A stretch of 64,000 nt of DNA from Albugo candida (lineage: Eukaryota), in contig JBDOQK010000040.1 in assembly GCA_040437565.1 (NCBI GenBank), positions 248,001-312,000 of the forward strand, read 5' to 3'. Made by a program: the position numbers and the translations under genes. Below are positions 27,411-64,000 of the stretch, one piece after another (positions within the stretch are counted from its first letter, which is position 1; every line of letters begins with the position of its first letter). The notes below the pieces were generated by a model. That model was not told the DNA's origin, searched no databases, and saw only the letters and a list, made by a program, of their open reading frames with translations.

Positions 27411-29900
27411 GTTATAATTCTTCTGCACATCCAATTGTCTCATATTGCGACCATGAGAAATTGCGGATTAGGTTAAATCTGCGACATTTCTATTTGAAAT
27501 GTTTGTCTCCGTGACACTGTGCGAGCGTTTTGGATGAGATAATGTACGTATCGCGTTCTAAGCCAACGGCACCAATTGATCAAAATTGACGTTCTCCTCG
27601 ATCAATTGATCAACAATTCCGTTTAATGCTTCCTTCTCACAACACATACGTCTGTGTTGGATTGTCAGTTCATCGACACGTATCGCTTGCACTTGATTTC
27701 TCTCCTTTCTTATTCCTAACTTCACTTGAAATCACAAAACTGTTGTTCATTCGACAAGTGTATCTGTTTGCCCTTTGAGTTGCAGGAAATATACAGACGA
27801 CGAGAGCACCCGATCTCGCTGATCATATAATCGGCCTCGCAAAGCGAAGAATTTNNNNNNNNNNNNNNNNNNNNNNNNNNNNNNNNNNNNNNNNNNNNNN
27901 NNNNNNNNNNNNNNNNNNNNNNNNNNNNNNNNNNNNNNNNNNNNNNNNNNNNNNGTTATAATTCTTCTGCACATCCAATTGTCTCATATTGCGACCATGA
28001 GAAATTGCGGATTAGGTTAAGTCTGCGACATTTCTATTTGAAATGTTTGTCTCCGTGACACTGTGCGAGCATTTTGGATGAGATAATGTACGTGTCGCGT
28101 TCTAAGCCAACGGCACCAATTGATCAAAATTGACGTTCTCCTCGATCAATTGATCAACAATTCCGTTTCATGCTTCCTTCTCACAACACATACGTCTGTG
28201 TTAAATTGTCAGTTCATCGACACGTATCGCTTGAAATGACTTCTCTCCTTTATTATTCCTAACTTCACTTGAAATCACAAAACTGTTGTTCATTCGACAA
28301 GTGTATCTGTTTGCCCTTTGAGTTGCAGGAAATATACAGACGACGAGAGCACCCGATCTCGCTGATCATATAATCGGCCTCGCAAAGCGAAGAATTTTGC
28401 TGTCACCGCATTTTTCTCTGATACGATTTGATCGTATTTTCATGTTCACGACACCAATTGATTGCTTCGGCATCGAAATTCCATTATTCTTGTCTAAACA
28501 TTTCGAGCTATTTACTGACGTCTGATACTTGTATTCGAACAGCTTTGTCCTCTTCTGCGTGTCGACTTCGCAAAGCTTTGATTGTAAACTTGAAGCTGAT
28601 TCTGTATCGGCTCGAGTTCCAGCGCTCGTTATAGCTGTATTATTGTACCTTCGTTTCAGCAACGATTCCTTCGTAATTGCTACCAATCATTGCTCTGTAA
28701 ATGCAGCTGCTTTACTTCTCCGGCATGCTTCTATTTACGTTGTGAGATCGTCAGTTCGCTTGATTATCAGCTCGTAGCTTTTCGACCTCAGCTATCAAGC
28801 GCTGATACGAGTTGAATCCTCGCAGTTTCAATCTCCCTTGTTTTCCGCTTGTTTTCTCGATTATTGAAGACCGTTCCCCATTGCTCGCAATTCCACATCT
28901 CCTTCTCAAACGCATCCACATACTGTTAGATCGATGTGACCGTACTGTTCTCATCGTTCCTTTTGTCTGGTGTAGTCGATAACATCTCTGCTTGCTCCAT
29001 AAGATGCGGACACATGACCGAGTACTTCCTCCATTTGATCCTCCTCGAAGACTCTTTCAGCCATCCGGTCAGAGCAATTGGCTTTCTGGCTGCTGCTTCT
29101 CGTTGCGGTGCCGGATACGCTGTTTTAAGATCCGGAAAGACGAAGTTGAGATTCAAAATTGCAGACATCTAATACCTGCCGCCAAAAACATTTGTGCGCT
29201 GGAAGATCGATCGATGGAGTTGATAGTTTCTACTGTAGCCATATACACTGTCTGATTTCATTTCAGTGACCGTTCGTATCGATACAGCTTGTTATCGAGC
29301 AGCGTTGTTACATTCCGCTGCTTCCCTTAAAGCCAAGTGGTCTATTGCCAGGGGAAGCAGTTCTATTTTCTTTTAGGCTTCTTCGAGCTCATTTTCCATC
29401 CAATCGCTGGAGCAATGATTTACAATGGTGGCATAAATTCGCTGCATTGAGACAAAGAAGCCACTGATTGGGCCGAAGGATGTACGCTGGAAATGCGGCG
29501 AGGAGGCATATCGGCTGACTGTGATAGTGTCGGATCAAACGAGTGGTTTCTGGGTCTTCTATTCCTCAGTTCTTCACTGTCAAAAACAGCTTGTGAGGAA
29601 GACACGTAACGCGTTTTACTTCCAGCCGGAATGGTATCGTACTCGGAATATATTACGCAAATTTCACTCGATATAAAATTTCAGCATTGCAGCGAGATCA
29701 CGACACTTTAGGGCCGAAATCCGACACAAATGCTCTCTGATTTCCTGAGTGATTTGACATTACACCATGTAGCGAAATCGAACAAAAGGCGTCACACCAT
29801 CCGAATGATTTGGAACCGCTACGAGAACAACGTCGTACTATTTCGGATATACTTGTCTGATTCCATATTAAGAAGAAGTGTCGTGTGATTTGGGAGGTTA
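27411..29900 (-). pseudogene. Decayed coiled-coil-like gene, duplicated at 33500-34600 and partly at 52200-52500
   Basis: Shared peptides DTESA...VDTQKR...RFARPII and EVEKL.AD; clear DNA similarity between copies. Confidence 0.6.
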
Positions 29901-33499: not shown

Positions 33500-34600
33500 T
33501 CTGATAGTTGCGTTTTGATTGAGATAACGTACGTGTCGCGTTCTGATTTAAAGGCCAATTGCTCCAAATTACCTTCTGCTGTGATGAATTGATCAACAAC
33601 ACCGTTCAATGCTTCCTTCTCACTGCACAAACGCCTGCGTTGGATCGTCAGTTCATCGATACATATCGCTTGAAATTGATTTCTTTCTTGTAATTTTCTC
33701 AATTGCACCTAGAATCTTGAACCTGTTCTTCCATACGACCCAAATGTATCTGTTGCTCTTCGCGTTGCAGTAAATATTCTCATCAGACGACGAGAGAAAT
33801 TGTTCTCGCTAATCATATAATTGGCCTTGCAAAGCGTTCGAAATTATTCTTCTCCAATACAATTTGATCGTATTTGCATGTTAACGACTCCAGACTGTTC
33901 TTACACAGCATTGACCTCTTCTGCGTGTCAACTTGGAGCCTTAAAGCTGATTCTGTGTCGGTCCAAGTATCCTGATGCTCTCGTAAAGTCTTCACCGCTC
34001 GTTGTAGCTGTATTGGAGTCGCTCTCTTTTCAGCAACGATTTCTTCGTAACTGAGTCGTATGTCCTTCAGCATATTTTTACAAAGGCGCTCCATTGGCTG
34101 ATGTTATTTCCTCTCCTCTGTGCCGTCATCTGCGACATCCTTGGCAAAGCTTTTTTCTCTCCTTTCACAACTTTTACTTGTGGCTGTAATCGCTTCAATT
34201 CATTGTTTCTTGAATGCAGCTCCTTCGCTTCTTGGCGACATGCTTTTAATTTCGTTGTGAGATTGTCAGTTCGCTTCAGTATCCGCTAGGAGCTTTTCGA
34301 CCTCAGCTTCTAAGGCGCTGATACGCGTCGATTTCTCGCAGTCTCGATCAGCCAGCCGGTATGGTACGCGATCGGAACATGTTGCGCAAATTCCCATCCG
34401 ATATGACATTTCAGCGTTGCAGCGAGATAACGACACTCTTGGGGCGAAATTTGATATGAATGCTCTCTTAGTTCCGTATCGATTTGACATTGACATTAAT
34501 ATTGGATTCTGTGTGCATATTTGGGAAAAGTTGACGTCTGAATGAATGGATATTCTCTCGTTCCAAACGGCATTATGATTGTGCTTCCATCGTGTCGATT
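33500..34600 (-). pseudogene. Decayed coiled-coil-like gene (paralog of 27411-29900)
   Basis: ORF pieces 33493-33708, 33813-34094 and 34266-34691 align with 28090-28800 and 29680-29760. Confidence 0.6.
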
Positions 34601-45525: not shown

Positions 45526-46912
45526 TGAAGGTGTCTATATTACTAGAATTAGACTAACTGACTTCTCTAGTTGCCTAGGTTATCTTAAATAACATATATA
45601 CATATAAAAAACGTTTTGTGAAATACCTGTGGGAGATTGATAAGATGTCGTCTCGTTGATAATTCCGTATCGTAGTAGCCCTCAGCATCCTTAGTACGAG
45701 ACTGTGTCCAGCTTGTTAATGCCGTAAAGTTGTAAAGTTGTAAAGTTGTAAAAGTGGTCCAAAAGTGCCGTGGTTTGCAAATTGCTGTGTGCCACACTAC
45801 GGTGAGCATAACCAGCCAACTAGGACAAGGATCTGAGTTGTACTTGCATTTTGACTTGTCTGTGCCGTACCCGCAGTAATGATCTTCGGCTACTGAAAAA
45901 TGCACCAAATGATCCTTGCGTTGCGAATTGATCCAGCACCTTTGCAAGCCGAACGCGTTCCTCGTGGTCATAACACTGTCTTCGAAAGTACCGAACGTGC
46001 GCACTAAACGTGGTGTAGATCACGGAAAGGGCTGGAACTGTCGGAGTTGCAGATCGCTGATCGAACAAACGACGATTCCGATCTTACCATATGAAGTGCA
46101 GTGTCACCGCTTGCAATGCTAGTCATAAATCTGCGATAATGTCGAAATAGTCTTTCCAATCCGACCGTTCTGTTGGTACGATTGAACATAAAATATGCGT
46201 CCAACGCGGTCGAGAGGAGAAAAACTGATCCCAACTAGGGAGTAACTCCCTCCATAACTGTGCCGTGTGATCGCACTCTAAAAAGAGATGTTGATCGGAT
46301 TCCACTGCCCCATACGAAGGCTGCGTGCACAATATGATGTCGGGCTGAATATCCTTNNNNNNNNNNNNNNNNNNNNNNNNNNNNNNNNNNNNNNNNNNNN
46401 NNNNNNNNNNNNNNNNNNNNNNNNNNNNNNNNNNNNNNNNNNNNNNNNNNNNNNNNGTGTGATCGCACTCTAAAAAGAGATGTTGATCGGATTCCACTGC
46501 CCCATACGAAGGCTGCGTGCACAATATGATGTCGGGCTGAATATCCTTCAAGAACCAGAAACGAGATCGAACTGGCAGCATTCGGAAGGCTAGACGTGAT
46601 GTAGCCATAAAAGTTCGAACTCGTTCTGAATCCAGTGCGCCCGATCTCTCCCGTGATGACCAATGTGTCGACATCGGATGACTCTTGGTTGGTTCGGGAG
46701 GTTTCCAGACGATTCGGGATAGTTGTGAGCGTGAAATAGATGGAAAATAATGTTTCCTTTCCGTGCTTTTTACTCCCACATAAAACGATCTGCCACTTGT
46801 GGTTGGTATAATCGAAGTGATGATACCAGTCTTCGAGTGTATACGCTGGAGAATCTGAGTGACTTCATTGTAAAGTCGACTCAGCAACTTTTCTTCAGCC
46901 ATATCCGATGTC
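45526..46912 (-). mobile_element. 5'-truncated LINE (ORF2 C-terminal zinc-binding region plus 3' UTR)
   Basis: 14-bp TSD GACCCTAGCTCAGT at 45512-45525 and 46913-46926; RLAFRMLPVR...C...ESDQHLFLEC..TAQLW (zf-RVT-like); same family as 22750-24380. Confidence 0.85.
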
Positions 46913-49068
46913 GACCCTAGCTCAGTCAGTTGAGCACGCGGGCCCCCTGCCAGACGTCGGTAGTTCTATCCCAGCAACTGTGGGCAGCGGTTTGAGCCCA
47001 CCCAAGCAGAAATCTTGAGAAATATCTGCCTCCATAGGTTTCTAGTCAGACTTCAGTGATATTCACACGGTCGGAAGCTCATGATAGGATAAGAAAGGTA
47101 GTTAAAGAACAAGATAAAACATTGTAATGAAATTTATGAGTATGGCACTTCCAGCATTGAGAAGGCCTTCCCAGAAGCCAGCCAACTCACCATCGTGACC
47201 TGGTGTGACAAAGGCAGCTGCTGTACAACGATTTGGTGCCATAAGCACAAGCTAGCTTCTCTTGCTATCCTGGAAGGCACCTCAGACCATTACTGAAGAA
47301 CTCCTTGACTTCTAAGAAGGTACCAAGCAGTCTGTCAGGTACCTCTCATTGGTAGATCGCCTGACCAAAAGTAGGCGAAAAAGCTTTCCAATATTAAAGC
47401 TGGCCTCATCAATCCAGCAGATTGATTTCCAGAACTCCATGGTGGAATTCTGGGATCTTTTTGCAAAGTCGCGACTCTTAGCAGTGTGTGGCTTGTTTAA
47501 AAATGGTTTTTCTAAACCCCCACTCGAGCAAACAGAGAAGCGACATGTAAAGACTCTCGCATTGCATTCTGACCAGCTATATTTGGTATGTTGGTGGTAA
47601 TTTCGGCCAGAGTTGAACGTCTTGCACCCTTGGTGCTGCCAACAAGAGTTCTGACTTCCCTTCTGAAAGTTTTTTTCGGCCTTCCAAGACTTTTCTTTGG
47701 CAGAGCTGTGATTTCTTTATTGCACCTCTCCATGATGCGTCGCACCTACCGCTCATTTGTGCTGAACATGCAGGCAATTTTCACAAGGCTGCCTCATTCA
47801 ACAAGTGCGCAAACGTTCCTCAGCTGTTAAAGTATGTTTTTGTGCAGTTTCAGCAATATTTTAAAAATTCGAAGGTGAAGTAGTGGTTTGTTCAAGCGCA
47901 AGCTTGCGGTTTTGAGTCCAAAAAAATAAGAAAAGCGAACAATCATTTCTGGAGGGTACTACACAGTGGCAATTCTCAAGACATATGGATTTGGTCTATT
48001 GAGGTTTACGTTCTAACATGGTCCCTCTTCACCTTATGCATAATGGGTACATTGTATAAAAACGAGTTTGCAATCAAAACCACCATGGGATGCTCGATTA
48101 ATAAGCAGAACCACGATGTGTTTTGTGATCGTATAACACAATTCAGAGTCAGTTTGTTGGCATTGCAACGTGAAGTGAACATATGATCGGTGCCACGGGT
48201 CACTCAGTCCGAATTGAGCCTTTTGCTGCAACTCAAGTAAGAGCTAAATAATCGGCTGCACGTATGCTCGCAATTGATGATCTGGCTTAGTGGCGACGCC
48301 CTTTGATAGAAAATATGTGCTCCTTTGTGGTGCATTTCAAACGCGGCTTTCGTAATCAAGCTGATTTGAGTCTGCTTACATTGTCAAAATTAGGTCTCGG
48401 CAAGCAATGTTTCAGTAACGATAAATAGTGTGACAATCGGTTTATTCACGACACCGCACCTTGAATCGACAACAAAACGCAAAGCGGACTCGGTCTGTTT
48501 ATTTTCTATGAAGAAGTGTACGACTGTTACTCCAGTTGTGTCTTCCAGAATTGCATATTTTTTGTGTAAAGGTAAGTGGAAAAGTAAATTAACGGTTCAG
48601 ACTCGTTTTAGTACTGGCAAGATGATTTAAGTCAGAGAGTGATCCATATTATGCAAGAAGATAAATGGTAGGGAGCGATCAACATACTGGAGGTAAGAAA
48701 ACACAAGCGAAAATGATAATGAATATAGAAAGCGCGTACTGCAGATGTGCAATTAATTCCACACATTAATTGCAACATCGTACTGTGATCGTGATAAAGC
48801 TTCTGCACTTGTCGACCTCAAAGCACTCGAGTTAGTCGCCATAACCATTGAAACTTATGAACAACATCACTGTACTATCCTTTTGAACCCATCGTCGATG
48901 CGATATTCGAATGTATGAGAAACAACATGAGACAATCTGATGTGCTGGCGACGCAAAGTGTCGCAGCCTATTCTTGGCTCATGTTGCCTTTAGTTTACCA
49001 CAACGTGGTACTTCCGGCAAAGTACTATTTGTGGTTTCATATTAGATGAATGCGCTGCCACCCATTAA

Positions 49069-49083
49069 TCATTTTTGAATTTC
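49069..49083 (+). promoter_or_regulatory. Oomycete Inr/FPR-like core promoter motif
   Basis: TCATTTTTGAATTTC about 45-60 nt upstream of ATG 49128. Confidence 0.55.
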
Positions 49084-49127
49084 ATCAATTGAGCACACAT
49101 ACACAAACACACTTCCCTTCATAGAAT

Positions 49128-49886
49128 ATGACACGATTGTATCTGGTTGGCTTACTTGGCATTGGTGCGGCTGGAATGCATATAAAATACAATCAGATCG
49201 GACGCCTCCCGCTCCTAGTCAAACCTCTGGAACTATACAAAGATAAGGATCCTGTCTTATCGGCAGTCAAGTACGTGGAGAATAAAGACAAGCTAATTGA
49301 AGCAATTAAAGAATATACGATGACATACGAACGCATTATCTTGGACCAAGTAGATTTTTTTTTTAAAACGGATGCGGATGCCTCGAAATTCTGGAAAGAT
49401 CTTACCTTTTTGCCAGTCGAACCACATTCTATACAAGTATTTCTAAGGGACAAGCCATCACACTTTCTTGCTGATAAATTTCCTTCCTATCTGGTCGTGT
49501 TTTATTCCCACACCGCTTGGAATGAACTATACAATACTGTGAAACCCAGTCCCAAAACCGTTGATCTCGATCCTTCCAATCTCAGATCCATCATTTCCGA
49601 ACTTTCTAATTCCAAAGAAAACAAAACAGATAATTTTGCCCCGAGAGCCATTGACTACTTTACTAAAGGTCTGGAAGGAAAAACATTTTATATTGACTTT
49701 AAAGATCCTAACAAAAAGCTTGGAAGCAATCTGATTGAATCCGCAAGTCTTTCATCTGACCAAATTCATCTCAAAAATGGTGTCACTCCCAGTGATTTAA
49801 TTGTGAAGGAACAAAAGCGTTTCACTCGAGTCGAGAGTCCTGATATCGACCAACGATTTCAAGTCTACCAAATTGTAAATATCTGA
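49128..49886 (+). CDS. Intact 252-aa hypothetical protein with signal-peptide-like N-terminus (candidate secreted effector)
   Basis: Uninterrupted ATG-to-stop ORF; MTRLYLVGLLGIGAAG; upstream Inr-like motif; no cysteines and no recognisable domain. Confidence 0.75.
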   Translation: MTRLYLVGLLGIGAAGMHIKYNQIGRLPLLVKPLELYKDKDPVLSAVKYVENKDKLIEAIKEYTMTYERIILDQVDFFFKTDADASKFWKDLTFLPVEPHSIQVFLRDKPSHFLADKFPSYLVVFYSHTAWNELYNTVKPSPKTVDLDPSNLRSIISELSNSKENKTDNFAPRAIDYFTKGLEGKTFYIDFKDPNKKLGSNLIESASLSSDQIHLKNGVTPSDLIVKEQKRFTRVESPDIDQRFQVYQIVNI

Positions 49887-52800
49887 AAGTATCTAACAAG
49901 TACACTTCTCATGCTTCTAATCTGTTTTATCGCTTCTATGATACTGTTCTTTAAGCCCGATAACTATGATACTCACGCTGTGATATAGAAATCTTTAGTC
50001 TTATAAACTGCTCGATCAGCTAGTAAGACTCGTTCCGCCTTGAGATTTTTCACATTCATACACACGCGCCACCTTCGTATTATGTCCTCAATCCATTACA
50101 TCGCGCCTAGGCCCTATGATGTGATCAAGTCGAATTCATCACAGATAACGACAAATCTCGCTCGTTTTTCAACACCCACCAAACACGATGAGCCTAACCG
50201 CTCTTCTACAATCAATCCATTGCAAGCTTGCTCTCCTCAATCGTGTCGCTCTAGAACCGATGCCTCAATCTCTCTCGGAAGCTTACGTCTTAATTTGGAG
50301 TTCGGACTTCACGCCCGGTCCTGAAGTCAAAATCGATCTCACTATGTGGGGTGGTCGTTGACGCGCGCTCCTTTTTTGTAAAAAATAGCTCCAGTCCTTG
50401 AGGAGCGTTCTGAAAACACTTTTAGAGACGTACCGATCTGAAGGTTGAACTGTTTTAACAATGAAAATATTCATACTTTCCCAATTTTTTGTCGGCTGGT
50501 GATCCTCTCGTTTCAAAGCCTAGAATTCACTGATATATAAAGCGATAGCTAGTATAAGCCAGTTATGGTTTCTCGAAGCTCAGTCTGCATCAATATCGAT
50601 AAAGGCGCTTGCATCATGACTCGAGGTCACGGGGATGTCACACACTCAGTTCACCGAGCGAAGTCAAGATCTATGTGCAGTAGCCACACGAACACTTGCT
50701 TTTTGCGAATAGTTGCAATCAGAATTACCCAACAACATTGCAGTGGTTGTGAAGAACGTATTTGATACCCTGATTTCGTGCATCCCGCGTTCAAGCATCA
50801 TTTGTGGCCCCAGCATCATACGTTCACTGTATCTGGCTGCTATGTGTATGGAAGCAGATCGGGAATCATCGATGAGTTCTTCATGTCTTCTATGCTGTGT
50901 TGATGTGATCAGTAATATGCCGTATTTGTAAGGATACGGCTACAAAGGAAGATATTTTGAAGCTGCCAAAGAAATGCGTCAAGTTACGTCATCTAAATCG
51001 TTCGCATGGAGAATCATTACTTCGACATACCTAGTCCAAGCTCAATTCACTACGTACTTGTGCGTAGCGATATATTCCTATCCTTTATACAACGTGATTC
51101 AGGTCATTTAAGGTGTCGCATCATCCAGTGGCAACGCCCAGAATGAGATCCCCCAATAATAGTTGTTGACCATAGCATTCATGAGTATCAATTGCGTCAA
51201 TCTGGGAAGAGTTTCATCATGATGTACACTGGTGAGCTGAGAATTCCGTGTGACTCCATGATAAGCATTTGAGTTTGTCGATTGAGAAGGGGAAAATTAT
51301 GAGAGGACGAGCTATTTCCTTGACGTTCCTTTCTGTTTTCTGCTTACACTGTACCTCTTTTTATCGACAATTGATCTTTTAACGCGGTTTCCTTGCCTTT
51401 GGCGCCTCCCATGTGATCTGTGATGCTCATATGGGAGAATTGACGTATTATAATCCTGATGCGGTCAATCGACTTCTTTATCATTCGCCCTACCTACTTT
51501 GAATTGTTCACGATCAACACTTCTTTCAGGCTGATCTTTTTATGGATATATTGATGCTTACTCTCGTCGCCTTTTTCATGTACATTTGATATCTCTGAGT
51601 TGGTTGACTCTACCCGTCATTTTCCCTTTTCCGGAATCGAAAGACTCAATTTTGAGCATTACATTTATGAAAGCTGCATTTATGCAGCTTCAATGCCTTT
51701 TTTTCGAAAATTCATTTATCCTAGTTATGAAAGTGGACATACATGCTTTTATGGCGATGTTAAGCTTTTTCCGTTCGGCGGCAGAAAACGAATCTTGTTT
51801 ATCGCTCGACGCGTTGTCCGTATATGCTTTTTTGCAAGACTTCTACCAATACTAGATACAACTCATCGACTTCCATATTTTCCCATCCAACGTTCCTCCT
51901 TCATTTCTTCTAGCCAGCTCCTAGACGTATTATCTCTGACTCGAGCAATGTTATTGGAGCGACGTTTTGTTAGTGTCCATTGATAGTATATGAAATGATG
52001 TCTAAAGATCGAGCTTTTATCTCCGAAGCAGAAACGGAGAGTTAGAAAAAGCTAATTGGCCTGTAATTGCGGGTTATCGATCACAACGACCAACTGTGTA
52101 AACAATTAGCATGAATGGATAATGCTAATGAATTACAGCGTTTCCGCAAAAAGGCATTTCACTTTCAATTGTGCGATCGGTATTGCGGCGATGAGATGTA
52201 GCGACCGATTATCTGATGCTTTGGTTCTGCGACCATGAGATATTTTTGATGAGTTCTCCAACAAATGCACATGTAAGGTCTATTTAAATTGCATTTATCG
52301 CAGATATATACGTTGAAGTTCCGGGACCCTTTGCGAGCGTTTTGGATGGGACACTGTACGTGTTGCATTCTAAACCAACGACATCAATTGTTCAAAATTG
52401 ACCTTCTCCGCGATAAAAGTGATCATCAATACCGTTTGATATTTCCTTCTCACAAACGTACGCTGTGTTGTATCGTCAGTTTATTGACATCCTAGGCCAA
52501 AAACTGTACATAGTCATTCCTCTTTTGTTTGAATGCCTTGCATGCTTTATTTCCTTTTATTACAGCCACGAAAAAAAAAATTGCGCAGCGTACGATCTTT
52601 CCCGTGGGGTGTTTTAAATATAGCCGATCTTAGGAAGACATGTGAGTAGTAGAGAAGGCTTTCTTCGCAAGTATTCTCGGTGAAATGTATCTCGAGTATA
52701 AAAAATCATAGCAAACTCGCAAGAAGGCAGTCTATCAAATATCAACGTGATTAAGTCAATTCGTTTGCACTTGTGCAAATGAGCCATCCAGAAATATCAT

Positions 52801-53116
52801 CTACGACATGTAATCATTCACAGCATCGAATTTTTTTCTGTTGTAAGTTCATCTATAGATCTTCCTGCAAAAATGGAGCTGTGTGACTTATTACGTCGCG
52901 TGCAATGAAAGCATCAAACTTGATGAAACTCCGACTTCCGTCTAATAAACGGAAATCCTTCTAGAAGATTCATGGTTAATCTTCATTGTGTATTTCGTGT
53001 AAACTTAGAAACGTAGTTCGCTTAGCGGAGATTATTGCCAAGCGTTTTTAGGAGACATCGATCATTCTTTTACTTGGATTTAAGAGTTGAAAGATTAACA
53101 TACAAGCTCTATATAT

Positions 53117-53173
53117 CCTAAAGTAACTTTTACCTAAAGAGGTTACTTTCGCTGATTATGCTTCTTCAGTAGG
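53117..53173 (-). ncRNA. Type I hammerhead ribozyme
   Basis: Minus strand: CCUA-CUGAAGA-A-GC(AUAAUCA)GC-GAAA-GUAAC(CUCUUUAGGUAAAA)GUUAC-UU-UAGG. Conserved core, three stems and a CUU cleavage triplet. Confidence 0.8.
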
Positions 53174-55118
53174 TTCTTACGCTATTAGTGAAGTGAAGTC
53201 GTCCCACACGGATATTAGGATTTAGGGTTTCAGACTTGCTTCCTGTACAGTCAAGGATGGCTGGAGGGGACAGGTCGGGGTTCCTAAGCGTGGACGGACA
53301 AAGTAAATGTTGCAGTGTCGGAGGTTTGGTGTAGCAGACCGTGATCGGTGCTTCGACCGAAGCTTCGAGTTCTCGGACTTGTAATATCCTTCGAACCACT
53401 GCACGGGGTGGACCATTGGGGATATATCTGAGCTTGTAGACGATGGGGACCGGTGAAGTGACGGGCTGAAAGTCGTTGCTGAAAGAGCTTTTCGGAAAAC
53501 CGGAAGCAGGAGCTTAGGTAAGTACCCGCGGGCCTGTAACCGTTTATAGAAAAGATTGACAATCCGCCGGAAGTCAGCTGGGCGGCTGTTATGAGATTTG
53601 TATTTCTTCAGTAAGCCGTAAATGAGTCCTTTGAGGATACCGGGGGAGTGTGCGCTATTGGCTGGAATGTATAGATAGAGATTGAGAGCCTTCTGGTGTG
53701 TCTTAGTGATAAGACGAGAACCTTCTTTCAGCATCCATAAGTCCAGGTGCGCAATCTGGGTCATGTGAACAACGTGAGTGACCCGGAGGCGGGATAGCTT
53801 AGTGAACATAGCTAAGAACCGCTTATAATCATAAGAATCCGGTCCTGGGTCCCAAACCAGGAACAGGTCGTCAATGAAGCGCCGGTAGTACAGTAGTCGT
53901 TGTTTGAATTGACTCTATAGAATATCCTCAAAGTAAGGTACTTACATTGAGGCGAAAGCTGTCGCGACAGGAGTTCCCATGGCAGTTCCCCTTTGTTAAG
54001 GCCAGACGATAGCACAAAGGTGAAGTAGTTGTTCTTCATGGGGAGCTCCAGACCGCTAAGGATAGCCGTGTACCATTTATGTCCAGAGATTCGGCGGCTG
54101 ATAAGACGAATTGCGTCGTCGATAGGAATGTGGGTGTAGAGTGACTCAACATCAGCCGTAATCAGTAGAGTGGACGGAGACACGGTAATAGCCGATTGCT
54201 CCTCAAGAATTAATGTGGGCTTCTGAGGTACGAGGGTATGCTGCGAAAGAAGGGTTGGAGTTGAAAGTCCAGCCACTTCGATAATCCTTGGAGCACACTG
54301 GCGGAGTTGGAGACAATAGGTCGAATGCAAAGAACAGGATTTTTTTTTTTTTTATGGATCTTTGCGAGTGGATAGAACACGTTGAGTCGCGTATTTTCAA
54401 GATCGGACATAACGATGGCTGTTGTTGACCAGTCAGAGTCGTATGAAAACTGTTTTGCTTGGTAATGGTACCAATTACGGACACGGGTTCGTAAAAGGCG
54501 AAGCAAAGCGTCGACCGGAGCAGTACTACGTGTGTAAGCCGTCGGATCTTGGAGATGATCTAGGCAAAGACGGGTAAAATGCTCAGTTGTGAAAAGGGCC
54601 GGACCGAGATTTTTGTCGGCAAGGACGACTTTTAAGTCCGGACGTTGGCGCAGTTGATGGAACGTAGCTTGTTGTATATAATTCAAGTTTCGGCGCCGGG
54701 TCGGGGTCCAGCGAAAGTTGTAAAGGTTTCGCTCAACCGTTTGGAGTGTCATTTTGATAGCCGGAGTAGCAGGCTGGGGTTGAAACGACCGATTAGGAAC
54801 ATATATTTTGCGAATAAAGTTCCGATTGTAATCCCCAAATTGCACACGAAGTCGGATGGATCGCATGAAGTCGGGGAGGGCAGAAAGAAGATCAGAATGG
54901 ACCAGTGGCTTAGGAGTAGGACAGAATTTCAAGTTAAGTCCTAACAGACGATTCAAAGCCGGAGGAACAGGGATTGTATTAGGGACAAAGTTATGGTAGG
55001 CTAAGTTTCTAGCAAAGCTGTTATCCATAGTAGTAGAACGGCTCGCTAAAAGAGCTAGTGCGTTCGCTTTGTCCGACCTGTGGAGTTGGATCGAGTCTTG
55101 TTTGGAGCGGGATCCCAC
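53166..55118 (-). pseudogene. Penelope-like reverse transcriptase (ORF2), frameshifted
   Basis: LGLNLKFCPTP, ADKNLG, FYPLAKIHK, IRPIVS, TADVESLYTHIP, GTAMGT (~53972-53990), RRFIDDLF (~53860-53885), YIPANSAH, LQARGY. Confidence 0.9.
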
Positions 55119-55129
55119 TGCTTTCTGGA

Positions 55130-55983
55130 CTCGGAAGACTTGTCGGGCTTTCTGGTGGGCAGCTTTTTAGACAAGTCGGGTTTGTTTCCTGCCGCTCTTG
55201 CGTTTCTTTTGGAGCGGCTTTGCCTGATTTAACCTGCTGGGACTTCGCAGATTTGGCGCCAGTCGGTGCCCTTTGTCAGCCGGCGCGTGCTTTTAACGAT
55301 TGTTGAAGCTGTGCAATATGTGCTTTCAAGGGCCCAATAGCTTTCTGTACGTTTTGTTGTACATGATGCTGAACAGACTCCGTGAGAGGACTCGTGGCTT
55401 CAAGCTCCATAGCAGCAGTTTTCTTAGATGCTTTGGCAGCGGCTATCTCCTCCCGGGCAACGTGCTCTAAATGAAGAGTATAGTCTAACCGGTTGAGTTC
55501 AGATGATAACCTGTCCCTAACTGTTAAGTAGTCATGAACAGCTAGGGAACGACTGCCAGACTCGGCGTTCAACCATATATCCCACGGAGGGAAGGATGCG
55601 CCAAGTCGTATATGAACCTTCTCATAGAAGGTCTTGATCTACAGTAGCGTTTTCTGCGGTAACGCGTTTCGCTCCGTAACGAGGGCTTCAAGCTCTAGGG
55701 CGGTAGCTTTTTGAATATCAGCCCGTAATTCCGTTTCATTATTTCCAAGTTGCTCTTGCAAGGAAGCTTAGAGGGTCTCAGCTACAGTAGACTCAAGTAG
55801 CTTGGAGTCTTAGAAAGTGGCCTTTAACTTAACACAGCGAGGTGTGTCACTGTTAAGTTTGGCAAGTGCCTTTTCCTTGGCAGTGATCTTTTGTGCTAAA
55901 AGACGGTACTGCTTCAGGGTGGAGTCAATGAGGTCCACTATATGGCGCGGCGGACTAGTACATACTGATTTGTATGGGACCAT
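55130..55983 (-). pseudogene. PLE ORF1: coiled-coil protein with basic tail, containing internal stops
   Basis: ATG at 55983; LLAQKITAKEKALAKL, ELEALVTERNAL, KAHIAQLQQSLKA, then a K/Q/S-rich segment directly upstream of the RT. Confidence 0.6.
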
Positions 55984-56547
55984 CCTTAAGTTTTTTTAAT
56001 CTTGGGTTTGACACAAGATAGGCAGGATTGGTAAGGGAAGAGTACCGTGAGTTCTATCAAGCCAGCCGAAGCGTGATGCCGCCAAGAATCGGTAGTACAC
56101 TAGCCTTTGTCGAAGTGCCGTCGGGGTAGGGCTGGGTTCCGCAGTTGTATGAGGTTGCCGTATACCGTTCGAACAGATTCCGATGGTTCCTTGCCGGTAC
56201 TCCCCAACGTTAAAGGTTTGCAAAAGCAAAACAGGGTCTATCCAGTAGGCACCGTGAGCTTAAAGCTCCTAGCGAACGTAGCTAGGGTGGGCGGAGTAGC
56301 CGTTCCCTCTACAAGAACCGCAGTTTTTCTGGGTTCGGAACTAACCTGGCAACTTCTTGTTCGACGATGGAGACGCTCTAGGCTCCAATCGTCCAGGTCG
56401 CGTGCCCATGCGATCATGTGTACCTGCCGGGTAAAGGGTGAACTTTGAAAGGAACACCCCTCCCCCCGCGTGTAAGAACGTTGAAACGCCGCTCCGGAAG
56501 TACGGTGGTTTCAAACCCTCACGAGTTTAGCATTAAAGAGTTGAAAG

Positions 56548-59500
56548 TGCTGAGGGTAAATTGGAAAGTGTATATATATGAAGATAGGTCCTTAGTTCAC
56601 TATCAACTAATCTGAGTCTATACCACAGTCTTCTCTATCGTGAACTCTACTCCGTTTGTAACGACATTGCCAACGCTGACTTTCCGCTTAAGTAATCGTT
56701 GGATGTACTCCGAACATTCTCAGTAGAAAGTCCGTGTGTGAGTAACACGATTCCCGAATATTTTCTTCAACACTCCCCCTCGACGCAATATTCCTGGTGT
56801 TCACCGGATGAACCAAATCTTGGAATTGCTTCGTCGAAATGGGCTTCAGCAAGAAATCAGCAACGTGTTTTTGCGATTGAACGTACTCAATCTTAATTTT
56901 ACCATCCTTCAGATGATCACGAATAAAATGATATCGAACATCAATATGTTTTGCCCGACTTTGATATCCGTTATTCATCGCTATAGCAATCGCACTTTAA
57001 TTGTCATTAAAAAATAGTTACGTATCGACCAGTGTTTGCCTTCAACTCGGATAGTAAATGATTGACCCATATAACTTCCGGCATGCAGAGTGAAAGGGCG
57101 CTCTGCTTCGGCCGTACTAAGTGCCACACTTTGTTGGATTTTTGACTTGAAAATCACTGTAGCATCGTTTGCCATGACCATGATTCCAGTTACATATCTT
57201 CAGTCTACCTTTCTATTCGCCCAATCTGCGTCACTGTACGCACATACCTTCAAAAACTTCCTGCCGCCTCTGTAAGTGATCCTATTCTCACTTGTTCAAG
57301 TACCGCAGGACTCTTATCGCTGCTTTCCAGTGCTCTTCATTAGGCTGGTCGTTGACATCTCTAGGTGGGTAAATGCATACGTCTTCCTCTAGATGTCCAT
57401 TTAAGAAAGCGGTGTCGACATCACATTGATGAATATGGAAACCTTGGTGAAAGCAAGTCGATGAGTAAACTCTGATAGAGTTCATATTTGCAACTGGTGC
57501 ATATGTATCTATATAATCAACTCCATATTTTTGTCGAAATACCAAACAACGAGTCTAGCTTTGTGCTTTTGTATTTCACCAGTTTGGTTTCGCTTCTAGT
57601 TGAATACCCATTTCTTTCCGATAACCTTCATATTCGGTTTCGGCTTTGTCAGAGTCTACGTGTTCTTTTCTTCGAGCCCTTGGAGTTCTTGACTGAGGGC
57701 GATTATCCATTATTCTGAATGTGCACATCGCATTGCATCTTTGTACGCTGTTGGTGTGTCTAACGCAGCACTGGCGTGCTCATGTTCGATTCGAAGTTGT
57801 TTTTGTGGTCGATTTTCTTCCAAGCTGAAAACAATAGCATCTGATAATTCGTACGGAACGATTGAGTCGGATTGTTTGCCGTGAAGTAGGTTGTTGGGCC
57901 CAGATGATGTAGATATTGGAGAGTGATTACAGCCATCTAATCTCTCCCTGAGCACAAGCTCCGTATTAGCAGTGTATCAATATTGACGTCATTTTCACTT
58001 GGATCAGCTTCTTGGTTACCATAATCTTCATCAACCTCCATAGCTCCATCATTTTCATTGGTCTCAATGGGCAGTTTTGCTTCACCAACAATTTCGTTTG
58101 CCCCGAACTCCAATCTTTCTGTAGACTGATCTTGGCATAAAACTTGAACATACTTCGATGGTTGAATTTCTTGAAAAGTAGCTGAACGCGTTATATCCAA
58201 ACAATAAGATTCCAAATTACATACACGATAGATATCCTTTTGTATTTTCGAAGTAGCCCAAAACATGCATTTGTAGACCTTGTCAAATTTGAATCTTTTC
58301 GACTTGTCGATATGTGCGTGCATAACCACGAGCTCCAAAAACTTTCAAATCTGAAATATGTGGTTGATATCCATAACATACTTCAAATGGAGTTTTATCT
58401 TGGTTTGCTGCACATGTTACTCTGTTATTATGTACATAGCAGTATTCATAGCTTCTGCCCACCATTCTCCTTCCACTTGCATGTGCGACAACATGCATCT
58501 TGCTCTTTCGGTGATTCTTCGATTCAATCTCTTTGCAAGACCATTCTGCTGCGGTGAATATGGAACTGTTGTCTGGTTTACTATTCCAGCCTTTTTGCAT
58601 ATCGCTGAAAAATTTTGATTGATATATTCTCCACCATTATCTGTACGCAAGCACTTGTTCCTTGTTCCATGTTGCATTTCGACTGGAGCCTTGAATTCAA
58701 AAAACTTACTTAGCACTTCCAACTTGGTTTGTATGAAGTAATAATGAACCAGTCTTGAATAATTGTCGATGAAGGTGACCATATACTTTGCACCGCCTTG
58801 AGAGTTTTCGTGTATCGGTTCAACAACATCGCTGTGAACCAGTTCTAGAAGCGAATTTTTTTTCATCATCCCGTATCCAGATGATTGAAATGGTTGAACG
58901 GACGACTTCCCATTCATGCATCCTTCATAAATTTCTTGTTCTGCACAGTCTGATGCTGATGTTGTTTTCACACAAAACCTTTCAACAAAGTTCTTCATAT
59001 TCTTCAATTTATTGTTTGATAAATGCCCCACTCTTGCGTGCCAAATTGATTTATTCACCAGCTTGTATTCCTCTTTTGCTACTTATTCACCGAGATTTGC
59101 AACTTTAAGTGCATCACATTCAAGTACAAACAGTTTTTTTTCTTTTCGTTGTATTCGTACTATACTTTCACCACCACTTTTGAATACACAAGTCAAGTTG
59201 CCAAATGTTACTAAAAGGCCTTTTTCTGCTAGAGCAGAGACGGATAGAAGCTTTTGATCGAGATCGGGAACGTACAAGACATTGTCAATTCTGATATATT
59301 TGTTGTTCTTCAGTTACGCGTAAGTGGTGCCGACTCCTACCGCATCCCCATTGCTCCCATCAGCAATTGAAATCGCAACTCTTTTTTTCAAAAATTGCTT
59401 CCACCAATGTTCTTGTTTGTGTCCATATTTGTTACATCGAAAACATTTCCCCTAAAACTTTGCTGCTTGTTCGGCATTCTTGTTTCTTCGACCTCTCCTT

Positions 59501-60329
59501 GGTCGATTGTTGTGGATCTTCGGTGCCACTTCATCGGATTCCTTCAGATTGATCCTCTCATATTCACGAAGAATCATTTTCTATGCCTGAAACAAATCCA
59601 TTCCAGGTATATTCTCCATAATCTTCACAACCTGATCACTTCCGAGTAGGATCCCAAGCTGTTCTTCCAAGTTGACGACAGCTCCATTTGCTTGCATTGA
59701 CATACATAGTTCATCAAATCTAAGGAAATGAGCCATCACATTCCCGCATTTCTTCATTTTGAATTCATGTAGTTCCCGTTGCTTTTGAATTTTGTTGTGG
59801 AATGAGCGCCTTAGGAAGAAGTTCTTTAAAATTCCCCAAGCTTGAGCAGTTTTACATGCTGACCTACCCATAGACTGAAAATTGAGATTGATCATGGTTG
59901 AGATTATCGCGAATGCCTTCATATCGTTGACCTTCCAATTTGAAGCAGGAATGTTAACCTCGTTGGGTATTTTACTTCGTCGATGTGATCGAGCAATCCC
60001 TTACGCATCAGCTGCATTCGAGCATTGAACTACCAGCTGAAATAATTTTCTTCTTTCAACATATACATTGTCGTGAAAGTCGTAGCTAAAGAAACAATAA
60101 GGTTGTGTCTGTAAACCTGTTGAGGCTAAATTGAAAAGTGTATAGTTATGAAGATAGATTTTAGTTCACTATTAGCTGATCTAAGTCTATATCACACTTT
60201 TCTCTATCGTAAAATCTATTCCCTTTGTAACGACATTGCCAATACTGACTTTCCGCGTAAGCATTCGTTGGATGTACTCCTAACATTCTCAGTAGAAAGT
60301 TGGTGGATTCCCGAATGTTTTCTTCACCA
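56548..60329 (-). mobile_element. Ty1/copia LTR retrotransposon, defective
   Basis: LTRs 56548-56772 and 60118-60329 (TG...CA); PPT AGGGGGAG; gag, WHARVGH, LRTDNGGEY, PQQNG, DVDTAFLNG, VALSTAEAE, KHIDVRYHFIR; internal RT deletion near 57340. Confidence 0.92.
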
Positions 60330-60799
60330 GATATTTCATGCAGACCCTTCAGGATCACGCAAGTGTCTTTTCCGTTCAGTACGCTTTAGTATGAATTCTA
60401 TATTTGTCATGGATTTTGGGTAGGGTTGAGCGCATGTTCGGCAGCTTATGTTCAAATGTCTCTAGCTGCTATAGAGTTCATCCCAGCGCAGCTTTACAAA
60501 TTCTTCACTCTGCATTTGATTCATTTGCTATCAATGTCAGTGACTCTGATGAAGTGTCGGCTAGCGGATGTTACCAGACACCAGACAATTCTACTTGTGA
60601 GCCACAAGTAAGCTACGAAAAAGAACACCATGCTCGTACACGTTTGTTATCGAAAAAAATTGAAAGGACCAGAAGCATTATCCATAGATTCTTGAGAGCC
60701 ACACTAACCTCATGCTTCATGCGTTAGGAGCGCCGGTTGTAAATCTCGAAATCTCTCTAATATGAATCGAACACTCTTTAATCGGTACCTTAATTTGCT

Positions 60800-61930
60800 T
60801 GCAATGAATTCGTTTACGTCTTTAAACTAATACAGGAATGATTTAGATTACCCCCCCCCCGCACTTGCGCTTTGCCTTTTTGTAGAGCGAGTATAGTGAA
60901 GGTGAAGCGCTGTTGCAAGCGCTGTTTCGCTGAAAATAGCACTTGCTTTCTGCATGTCGCATTCATTTGATCCCATAGTAGCCATGAGTAAACTGTCTCA
61001 GTTTCGGGGGGACCTTTCGCATAGCGTTCGTGCACTGTACCAACTGAGAAAATGCACACATTCTTCCTTCCAACCATCTGCTTCATCAAACTATGAACGT
61101 TTTGTGTGCTGTAAGGCAATGATTTCGTGCAGTCTAACATGGCAACACGTCAAAGCATTCAAAATGCGACTTTCACACATGTCGTAAATTCTCCTTCTCA
61201 TAGAGCGACATCTTTTCCTTTCCCTCTCAACAAACAGTTGTTGGCCTATCGTCGGTCGGTACCAAAGCCAATAGTTGGTCCAGCTCGACAAATCCCTTAT
61301 ATCCACATTGCGACCACATAATCAAACTGTCCTGATTGTCAATCTGTCACACGATTAATTGGACCACCAGCGACTAATGATATACAGATGCGGCAAGCTT
61401 TTCTGCGGATGATGAAGTGCACATATTTTCATGCGACGTTTTAAATAAAGGTATTGCCGCGTTTTGAGAAAAAATTAACTATTATGGTGGTCATAATCAC
61501 TCCAAGACTTCAGTAGGCTGCTCAAATCCATAGCGGGGTTTGGCGTAATGATTTTAAACGTAAGCGCTGTAGCCACAGGTGTCAGACCTGGCAATTTCAC
61601 CTGACCACGTATTTTTCGTGTGAATTGGCTATCAAACTTTTGAACCATCACTTCGACGGAATATGTAGCACGTGTATCCGTCGTAGCAAGCTCCCATCTC
61701 AGCTCCTCATTATTTCCACACGGGAATATGTTTCACGGGAGATCTATTTTCAACGTAGTATAATTCTTGTGATTTGTCTCGGAAAACTTAAACAGTGGCG
61801 CAACCGTGATATCAGTGATTCACTTTAGTTGGATCTGCATGGCTTCCCCGTCTGGATCGAGAAATAAATCTCGCACTGCTATATATTATGAAGCTGCGCT
61901 AACGTCGCTTTCCAGTGATGACCCGGCTCT
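60800..61930 (-). mobile_element. Probable Ty3/gypsy RT relic
   Basis: Degenerate pieces (VVA.DI, RILNALT, PPET) in gypsy RT order; heavily broken. Confidence 0.35.
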
Positions 61931-64000
61931 CTNNNNNNNNNNNNNNNNNNNNNNNNNNNNNNNNNNNNNNNNNNNNNNNNNNNNNNNNNNNNNNNNNNNN
62001 NNNNNNNNNNNNNNNNNNNNNNNNNNNNNNNNGTGTCTGGTCTATGGTTTGGTTTCGTATAATTTAATCTATGTGCCAGCGTTGACCCATTGGTTCGAAT
62101 TAAAACGAGTGTTATGTGGCTAAATAGTTGAAGAGAGTGCGTATCACAGTCACAAGGTATCGAGGTCAAGGAAATGAGATGTCGTGGGGTGTAAACTATA
62201 CATGATATGCGGATTCCGTTTCTTGCTTTTCTTCAGCAGAGTAGAAATCTCTTTCAAAATGTTCTATTGCTGCTTCATGCTGCAAATAACTTCTTGTTGA
62301 AAAGCGGATGTTCATCTTGATCAACGCTGTGAGTTGCATTATAGGTACGCTTTGTAGACTATTGTGTTATGATCGCTAAGTAGTTGGGCAGGAGGTAATC
62401 TACTTTTCAGATTTGGGCTGAGAGTGCCACATACCATTTGTTATGAATTCTGAAGGACGGGTGTTGCGCAGACCAATAATAAATGCGAGAACTAGGTCCG
62501 TATTTATTGCATGATCACCACGCTTTGGTATATTATGTGTCCCAACGACGACTTTTGTTTGCGGAAATGGATTTGGATAGGTATGATTATACAGTCGCGG
62601 CGCAGTGAAAAACTCCAAACGATTTGCTCCATTTATATGAGCCCTGATCAATTGGATGGATTATTCCTTCACGGAAAGAGTAATCACGTGAAGCGTCTCC
62701 TAACCGTCAAAAAAGGTTCGATTGAAGTATCTGTAAGTGCTTGCAAACAATCTAGACTTTCTGGAGGAAACTAAGTTATGCATGAGGATCTTCGGAGTGT
62801 AGATGTCTCATGAGGGATCAACTTGACCAAGCTAATATTAATCGCGCTAAAGGAGAAAACGACATGGATGATATGTGTCTCCGTTTTTTGCATAAAGTAA
62901 CATCGTGGCCAACTGGTGTAAACTGTGAATCGAACTCCACTTAATGTAGTGCATGATCAATGGTGAAGCGTTCGGATAGCAATCATTCCAATTGTGATTG
63001 TAGTTTTTGGCGTGAACCCAGCAGATATGTCATCTACTTTTATTCTCTGAAGCCTATCTCATTTGAATCTTGTCTGGACTTTGTTGCCATTTGTTGAATT
63101 ACATTATGCTGGTCCTTTTCCTCGCATAATTCGAGCTTCATTCATAAAAAAATCATATTCGAGTAAAAGTCAGAAAATGAGTAAAAGATTAATCTTACTT
63201 TTCCACGTGCAGTCGTATCGTACACTCTTCTGGTAACTGCAGTGTGTCAGTTTGCTCAATTCACTCCGCTTCACTTGCTACACATATCACGAATTTTCGT
63301 TTGATACGACTCCAATCTCACCACTATCAACGTACTGTACCGAGAATAAGAAAATGTCTTTGATATTCTTCATCAGCAATCGCTCCACAGCGCTACTGGT
63401 CTTTCATGGTGTAAACTGATGGACTTGTGTGATATGACATGGATAGTGGTTGAGACTACAATCCAAACGATCATAAGAAATCCGCACCATCAAGTGTAGT
63501 AGTTCGTCTTCATAAGCGCATGTCGTCCAAAATTCATCCATCATTAGCAATCGATGCTGTAACAAATCATTGGTGACGTAGTTGGCAACTACAATTTCAC
63601 GCTCCAAGAAAGATAAAAAGCAAAAACGAACGACCATGCCACTGATAGACTGACATTCTCAATATTGCAGGCAGGATCAACGCTGCGACAGTGAATTCAA
63701 AAGGCTGCAAGCAGTCGGGTCGAAATGATCAGTCCGTTGTTTATTTGAGGAATTGACTGACGTGATCTTAATGCATCAAGAAAAGAATATTTCTAATTTT
63801 TTGACCAACCAGCAATTGATATTCCACAGATTCCTAATGAAGCTTGGTAAGTGACGATGGAACGGGTACAGCACCGCCGTGTGTGGCCATCAACACCTTA
63901 ACGTGATGGTTCCAAATAGTATGTGTGTAAAAGCGCCAAAGACCGGACCGCAATGTCTGTAACGTTGGAACAAGCGCGACACATATGTAAACGAAATACG

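Follow-up and report, generated by a model that had tools for sequence, protein, structure and literature searches.

A decayed Penelope-like element in Albugo candida, very probably endonuclease-less and of the telomere-attaching kind, at an internal site, and the origin of the 16-bp repeats that flank it

How does a retroelement that encodes no endonuclease (EN) come to lie at an internal place in a genome, and are the short direct repeats on either side of it a target-site duplication (TSD) or a part of the element itself? This question is raised by a stretch of 64 kb from Albugo candida (GenBank assembly GCA_040437565.1, contig JBDOQK010000040.1, positions 248,001 to 312,000; hereafter the window, whose numbering is used throughout), in which a Penelope-like element (PLE) with two open reading frames (ORFs) occupies 3,438 bp of the minus strand at 53094-56531, as delimited from the sequence and from stop-to-stop frames across 52800-56900. 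An earlier description made from the letters alone, here called the sequence-only reading, had placed a near full-length, two-ORF, EN-less PLE at these coordinates between repeats of the form ATT(T/A)AAGAGTTGAAAG, and both the coordinates and the repeats are borne out, the two repeat copies being identical at 15 of 16 positions. With high confidence we identify the element as a two-ORF, EN-less PLE of the telomere-attaching kind, and the locus is one old, inactivated, single copy at an internal, transposon-rich place. The best explanation of the whole, to which we give an even chance, is that such an element was laid down at an internal place and that the 16-mer is most likely its own 3' end.

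The body between the repeats consists of a 5' untranslated region (UTR), ORF1, ORF2, and a 3' UTR, all on the minus strand, and its length agrees with the 3.1-3.9 kb of the units in the nearer families among 78 related loci (numbered with the prefix L) from one scan of metagenome contigs. The 5' UTR (55984-56531) is non-coding over ~548 nt, with homology to ORF1 beginning at 55989, and neither a scan with the hammerhead model R1, described below, nor a blastn search for internal repeats found in it a hammerhead or a copy of the 3' module. ORF1 (55024-55983) has 320 codons with four in-frame stops, and ORF2 (53166-55028), which encodes a PLE-type reverse transcriptase (RT), is split into four frame pieces, the present frame running to a stop at 53166-53168. 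The copy as a whole carries three frameshifts and six or seven stops, and it is the only one of its kind in the window, as judged by blastn and by tblastn with four relatives. With ORF1 and a PLE-type RT in 3,438 bp, the description as a near full-length two-ORF PLE holds. The interstitial placement holds as well, as no telomeric array occurs in the 64 kb; the window is a scaffold of short contigs with nine runs of 100 N (e.g., 46357-46456 and 61933-62032), so that "interstitial" is valid only for the contig bearing the element, 46457-61932.

ORF1, read from 55983 to 55024, is 37% identical over 257 aa (E = 2e-38) to ORF1 of the metagenomic relative L001, and a single-sequence AlphaFold model of a 120-aa open piece consists of two long helices at low confidence (pLDDT 58). 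Of the coiled-coil ORF1 in the sequence-only reading, the long helices are thus found in the model, and because of their low confidence the coiled coil itself is plausible only. ORF2 starts at 55028 with MDNSFARNLAYHNF, and its pieces extend over 55028-54219, 54210-54016, 53989-53474, and 53468-53286 onward; its damage comprises the three frameshifts, with breaks near 54215, 54000, and 53470, two stops within the pieces that were counted, and a further stop in the W-x-Q-x-x-GTAMG block. The pieces retain the RT blocks ADKNLGP, KIHK..IRPIVS, DVESLYTHIP, Q.GTAMG, RFIDD, LDL, and KALNLYLYIPANSAH, for which the block names used in passages of PMC13159263 and PMC8557442 are the DKN motif, RT1-7, and the thumb, and the residues D-K-x-x-G, K-x-H-K, R, D, Q..G, and DD are invariant across 76 relatives. 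The end of ORF2 lies ~30 residues past the conserved ...PNGP...CYTKPPTLQHLLCP (the CYTKPPTL..LCP block). ORF2 of the relatives ends alike, and relatives of 568-713 aa (32-61% identity) stop right after this shared C-terminal block. The nearest clusters in the ESM Atlas are DUF8422/HTH_animal/RVT_1 proteins of about 570-620 aa, and a profile search of the PDB by sequence returned weak generic RT matches only (best E = 2.4e-4) and no TERT.

Is the EN missing by decay or by nature? The scan for GIY-YIG that the sequence-only reading had proposed found no Pfam match to this domain in any ORF2 piece of the window copy, which therefore lacks the joining of GIY-YIG to RT that characterizes EN-plus PLEs. 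Among relatives, the domain was likewise absent by Pfam from a set of 9, from 14 ORF1/ORF2 translations of related loci, and from 76 full-length-like proteins, 30 of which matched RVT_1, and the pattern G[IV]Y..Y[IV]G occurs in none of the 76. Precomputed Pfam lists for 141 proteins (21 + 120) also hold no GIY-YIG and contain PF00078, PF28514 (DUF8422), and PF26215 (HTH_animal) only. The EN-less character claimed before is confirmed in this sense, and the absence appears to be a trait of the whole family rather than damage to the window copy.

The 3' UTR holds two features that are new here, a telomere motif and a hammerhead ribozyme motif. The former is a reverse-complement telomere-like stretch of the TTTAGGG type, AAACCCTAAATCCTAAT at 53230-53214 on the minus strand, which lies between ORF2 and the hammerhead, just past the point where ORF2 of the relatives ends and ~38 nt upstream of helix I of the ribozyme. 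It is degenerate, with 1.4 perfect units, and TTTAGGGTTT occurs once in the window, inside it. The closest DNA relative, L001, starts with ~150 nt of (CCCTAAA)/(CCCTAAAA) repeats, carries AAACCCTAAAACCCTAG right after ORF2 at the same place as the motif of the window, and has 122 nt repeated at both ends; in L003 and L009, telomere repeats come after the element. Taken together, the reverse-complement telomere motif, the hammerhead, and the telomere-capped closest relative indicate an element of the telomere-attaching kind, although the window copy itself is not at a telomere. The order of the modules is ORF2, telomere motif, and hammerhead in both L001 and the window, and it is ORF2, hammerhead, and (CCCTAA)4 in L003 (2999-3245), which has a repeat of the CCCTAA type instead of CCCTAAA.

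The second feature is a type-I hammerhead motif at 53115-53175 of the minus strand, composed of CUGAAGA (53169-53163) and GAAA (53150-53147) with predicted cleavage after 53121. It was matched at 36.7 bits (E = 1.1e-9) by R1, a covariance model built from 17 relatives with the window sequence left out, for which the next best score in the 64 kb was 12.1 bits. Across the 78 loci, R1 gave 64 matches in 54 loci, 63 of them on the sense strand, and a pattern finder that demanded CUGANGA, GAAA, and three helices gave 47 sense matches and one antisense match in the loci plus the window, compared with none in five shuffles; on both strands of the whole window it found this one match only (0.05 expected). 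In the alignment of the 17 hammerheads (A5), 12 of 14 pairs vary on both sides, and 88.9% of the cells are paired compared with 30-41% with slid partners, a share inflated by the finder's own demand for pairing, so that the information lies in the variety of pair types. The helices of the window copy are weak, with 4 bp in helix I and 2 bp in helix II, and its hammerhead is probably decayed, while the minimum free energy (MFE) fold of the best-folding relative, L002, is a three-way junction (z = -2.6).

In most hammerheads of the family, an additional A separates CUGANGA from helix II, and helix II itself is only 2-3 bp long; L002, with helices of 7, 5, and 7 bp, shows neither trait. Even L002 scores only 15.3 bits with Hammerhead_1 of Rfam, and the hammerhead models of Rfam 15 matched none of 17 loci at E ≤ 1, which means that a variant common in this family is missed by current models. 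The sole R1 match on the strand opposite the RT, L064:40-95 (55.7 bits), possibly belongs to an inverted neighboring copy. In L031 (6961-7099, and also 68-135), the 66-68 nt from the cleavage site to the 3' end are repeated once more in tandem, and the start of the second, 68-nt copy coincides to within 1-2 nt with the predicted cleavage site, which lies in a run of T. This tandem tail looks as if a 3' cleavage fragment had been reverse-transcribed, and it suggests that the ribozyme cuts in vivo.

Where does the element belong? An exhaustive HMMER search of protein cluster representatives with the 318-aa N-terminal piece of ORF2 found 1,506 at E ≤ 0.001, 387 at ≤1e-10, and 32 at ≤1e-30, and 21 relatives with lengths of 494-820 aa and 32-61% identity came from a word-indexed search aimed at longer proteins. 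One cluster member is a protein of the oomycete Globisporangium splendens in which ORF1 and ORF2 are fused; in most of the first 40 of the 78 loci, ORF1 lies upstream of the RT ORF and overlaps it. A quick maximum-likelihood tree of 51 rows, rooted at the midpoint and composed of unnamed relatives without named Penelope, Athena, Coprina, or TERT references, pairs the window with P0001 (SH-aLRT support 95) and then with P0199 and L001 (97), and this group stands beside a clade that holds the G. splendens protein (96). Similarity to L001 at the DNA level was not found in the UTRs, only in the RT. The window PLE is thus an ordinary representative of a family that is very widespread and has members in oomycetes, and the hallmarks of telomere-associated EN-minus PLEs, the telomere-capped close relative, and the abundance of cluster representatives make the uncharacterized clade proposed by the sequence-only reading doubtful. 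No description of PLEs in oomycetes was found in the literature searched. Gladyshev and Arkhipova (2007) reportedly name stramenopiles in their abstract.

By its features, the element is an EN-minus PLE of the Coprina/Athena type. Coprina-1_Alen of Ascochyta lentis is described in passages of PMC13159263 as a two-ORF, telomeric, EN-minus element with a coil ORF1, and Coprina Pt1 of a diatom is among the references there. Like Coprina, the element and its relatives lack GIY-YIG, combine a coil-like ORF1 with an ORF2 that has the DKN motif, RT1-7, and the thumb, carry flanking repeats and hammerhead motifs, have telomere repeats at the ends of the close relative L001, and are spread widely among taxa including stramenopiles. 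Unlike Coprina, the window copy is decayed and stands alone at an internal site that has no telomere array in its vicinity, and its membership of that clade is tentative. Athena/Terminon of bdelloid rotifers are telomere-attached EN-minus PLEs with a reverse-complement telomere stretch and a hammerhead, according to parts of PMC6431247 and PMC8557442. They share with the present family two ORFs, a hammerhead and a short reverse-complement telomere stretch in the 3' region, telomere-capped 5' ends (in L001), and head-to-tail arrays. By description, however, Athena is specific to rotifers, and its telomere stretch directly follows the hammerhead, whereas the stretch precedes the hammerhead in the window and L001; L003 has the Athena order.

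The EN-plus PLEs, which in the relevant passages of PMC8557442 comprise Penelope/Poseidon, Neptune, and Nematis, as well as Naiad/Chlamys with an N-terminal EN, resemble the element in their RT blocks, in the linker block before the EN site, in the pseudo-long terminal repeat (pseudo-LTR) or tandem layout, and in the type-I hammerhead. They make TSDs with their own nuclease, whereas in the window copy GIY-YIG is absent from ORF1 and from both ends of ORF2. Non-LTR retrozymes, tandem type-I hammerhead repeats that are thought to move via circular RNA (as stated in part of bioRxiv 10.64898/2026.07.22.740005), are similar in having one type-I hammerhead per unit, in the tandem or circular-looking units of the relatives, and in a unit plus a few nucleotides as from a circular template, but they are non-coding and small, in contrast with the autonomous 3.4-kb unit of the window, which is known here from DNA. 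Oomycete-type genomes do hold Coprina/Athena-like PLEs with the full telomere-motif and hammerhead module. The family is very common in protist metagenomes, and repeat libraries of oomycetes will overlook or mislabel such elements.

What, then, are the 16-bp repeats? The left copy, ATTTAAGAGTTGAAAG at 53078-53093, might be one half of a TSD or the 16 nt with which the element ends, and the right copy, ATTAAAGAGTTGAAAG at 56532-56547 (both in plus-strand letters), might be the other half or a 16-nt, 5'-truncated upstream copy; the latter abuts the LTR of a decayed Ty1/Copia element. One might suspect a chance match with the true ends lying elsewhere, as the boundaries are set by the repeat itself and the sequence is AT-rich and of low complexity. 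That is very improbable: a match of 15/16 was reached in only one of 300 mononucleotide shuffles of two 401-bp end zones, so that chance is an unlikely source of the repeat, the 12-mer core AAGAGTTGAAAG is found only at these two places on both strands of the window, and 3,438 bp fits the units of the relatives. An origin from the element itself, as a 16-nt pseudo-LTR, stands at about an even likelihood in our view. In the relatives, 5'-truncated copies that end at the element's own 3' terminus lie directly upstream of full-length copies, two of them in L005 (at least 433 nt, and 336 nt), and the terminal repeats of L015, L023, L031, and L055 have this same terminus as their downstream edge. 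In these five families, 58-67 nt separate the predicted hammerhead cleavage site from the terminus that follows it (L068 was dropped from the count because its repeat runs to the contig end), and the 16-mer of the window, at 28-43 nt after the cleavage site, falls within this tail zone. The tail would be 43 nt long, nearer the family norm, and the element would end in ...CTTTCAACTCTTAAAT if the 16-mer belongs to it; if the 16-mer is target DNA, the tail would be 27 nt (53094-53120, minus strand) and the end ...GTATGTTAAT. When the 27 nt, the 16-mer, and GCTAAAC are read once, a CTAAAC stretch falls at +46..+50 compared with CCTAAACCCC at +46..+55 in L001, a post hoc and weak likeness. The pseudo-LTR or partial tandem layout is clear in the relatives, 21 of the 78 loci having the same sequence as prefix and suffix and hence tandem or circular units, and in the window only the 16-nt repeat could stand for it; from a family without a nuclease, moreover, no TSD is expected.

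A true TSD, as proposed by the sequence-only reading, would mean that an EN-less element, 53094-56531 proper, was copied between two nicks 16 bp apart, which could stem from a staggered break already present, from an intermediate of replication or repair, or from a nuclease acting in trans. We regard this as possible and somewhat doubtful. It accounts for the 15/16 match that shuffles so rarely reach, and for the sharp end of similarity on both sides, with no resumption beyond Copia (262 of 500 shuffles score as high in local alignment). An ordinary-sized pseudo-LTR is missing, as there is no 5' copy of the hammerhead/telomere module, nor did blastn or a second R1 match reveal a long internal pseudo-LTR in the element. 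The last 5 nt of the right 16-mer, GAAAG, match GATAT, the outer flank at the far end of Copia, at three of five positions (CTTGG beyond the left 16-mer matches at one of five), as expected if the PLE entered beside an existing Copia and took its 5-bp duplication into the 16-mer; the 15/16 identity is also more readily reconciled with a PLE that is younger than the two Copia LTRs (184/225 identical), although the age estimates overlap. In contrast, neither the window copy nor any relative tested has a nuclease, the known entry of the family, according to PMC8557442, PMC6431247, and PMC13159263, is at telomeric 3' ends without a TSD, a tail of 27 nt falls short of the 58-67 nt in five relatives' families, none of four sequencing runs holds an empty allele, and the duplication would have to end exactly at the edge of the Copia LTR. 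With no empty allele, no second copy, and a 16-mer within the tail zone of the relatives, the TSD is not established, and neither is the making of a TSD without an EN, which one copy can neither show nor exclude. If the TSD were real, the locus would be a rare documented case in which a telomerase-related retroelement without an EN had used a staggered break to enter an internal site, and it would bear on how EN-minus PLEs escape chromosome ends, a claim that one decayed copy cannot carry. The locus might instead be a remnant at the DNA level, either a piece of a former (sub)telomeric head-to-tail array that recombination moved or collapsed, or the product of a double-strand break that took up a PLE cDNA and a Copia cDNA jointly, with the 16-bp repeat as array register or repair junction. 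Such an origin seems unlikely. Relatives are indeed mostly tandem or circular in assembly: in 21 of 78 loci (e.g., L006, L039, L041, L057, and L070) the first 81-596 nt recur as the suffix at ≥95% identity without gaps, these units of 3.1-6.4 kb appearing to be circles or tandem arrays, and L019/L020 are diverged tandem units. The window copy is exactly one unit plus 16 nt, its 5' side meets the terminal nucleotide of the Copia LTR, which is the end of linear Copia cDNA, and Copia has no clean 5-bp duplication. LTRs that have diverged by 13% could nevertheless leave a match of 3/5, the window holds neither a telomeric array nor another PLE fragment, and breakpoints that agree in unit register to within 16 nt would be coincidental, with no mechanism to bring them about. 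Finally, measured against successive hammerhead cleavage sites, the copy begins 28 nt past one and stops 43 nt past the following one. It comprises a full unit and 16 nt in a circular permutation of the telomere-attached form, which is what would be expected from reverse transcription just over once round a hammerhead-processed, circularized RNA; the circular or tandem assembly of 21 of the 78 relatives and the repeated tail of L031 are compatible with this. A retrozyme-like route of this kind is distinctly unlikely; if it were true, an autonomous EN-less PLE could use circular RNA and land at internal breaks.

For an element-derived 16-mer in an EN-less PLE of the telomere-attaching kind, the following course can be proposed. 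Active members would be transcribed from head-to-tail or pseudo-LTR arrays, and the RT would prime on a free DNA 3' end, normally a telomeric G-overhang paired with the CCCUAAA stretch of the RNA, so that no element-encoded nick would be needed. The window copy might have been laid down instead at an internal DNA end or break, and the 16-nt pseudo-LTR could have arisen either because the RT switched templates as it finished or because a tandem or circular template was copied slightly beyond one unit. Several points weigh against this account and the identification behind it. A 16-nt pseudo-LTR is far shorter than any in the relatives (68 nt or more), and with no second family copy and no empty site the true 3' end is not defined. 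If Copia was there first, the match of GAAAG to GATAT at three of five positions, against one of five for CTTGG, favors the TSD. The GIY-YIG scans were run without an EN-plus PLE as positive control, and the Coprina/Athena label comes from features rather than from a tree with named references. As to the ribozyme, the MFE fold of the window sequence is not a hammerhead (z = +0.8), and Rfam models gave no family at E ≤ 1 in 52000-58000 and no hammerhead at E ≤ 10 in 53060-53260.

The empty site that the sequence-only reading had suggested looking for did not appear. Four runs (X1, X16, X18, and X20) out of 20 run rows matching part of the stretch were examined at the locus, all picked by words of the stretch itself and hence biased toward filled alleles. 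All four have contigs across both junctions, none has a joint of the flanks, and the depth over the element is single-copy-like; this includes X20, the only low-share run (0.23), in which both junctions are present. Within the material sampled, the insertion therefore appears to be fixed. Among the runs listed as matching the stretch there is no RNA run. A 4,333-nt contig of run X1 contains, elsewhere in the same organism, a 307-nt fragment ~90% identical to the start of ORF2 (window 54714-55020), so that at least one more, fragmentary, member of the family exists.

The age of the PLE, estimated from its density of stop codons, is about 0.053 substitutions per site (95% interval 0.02-0.116), and that of the Copia LTR pair is 0.073 per lineage (0.045-0.10). 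As these intervals overlap, the order in which the two elements arrived cannot be told. The neighboring Copia element, which is separate from the PLE, occupies 56548-60329 of the minus strand and holds gag, integrase, and RVT_2 in only 3.8 kb. Its LTRs (56548-56772 and 60118-60329) have TG..CA ends, and a primer-binding-site-like GGTTTACAGACAC and a polypurine-tract-like GAGGGGGAG lie inside 60117 and 56773, respectively. On the other side, the left flank of the PLE is a multi-copy repeat, covered in run X1 at 2-3 times the depth of the element, and two variant contigs terminate near 53047. Dispersed copies of this repeat, 73-83% identical, are found in the window at 52320-52489, 27508-27678, 28052-28222, and 33510-33659.

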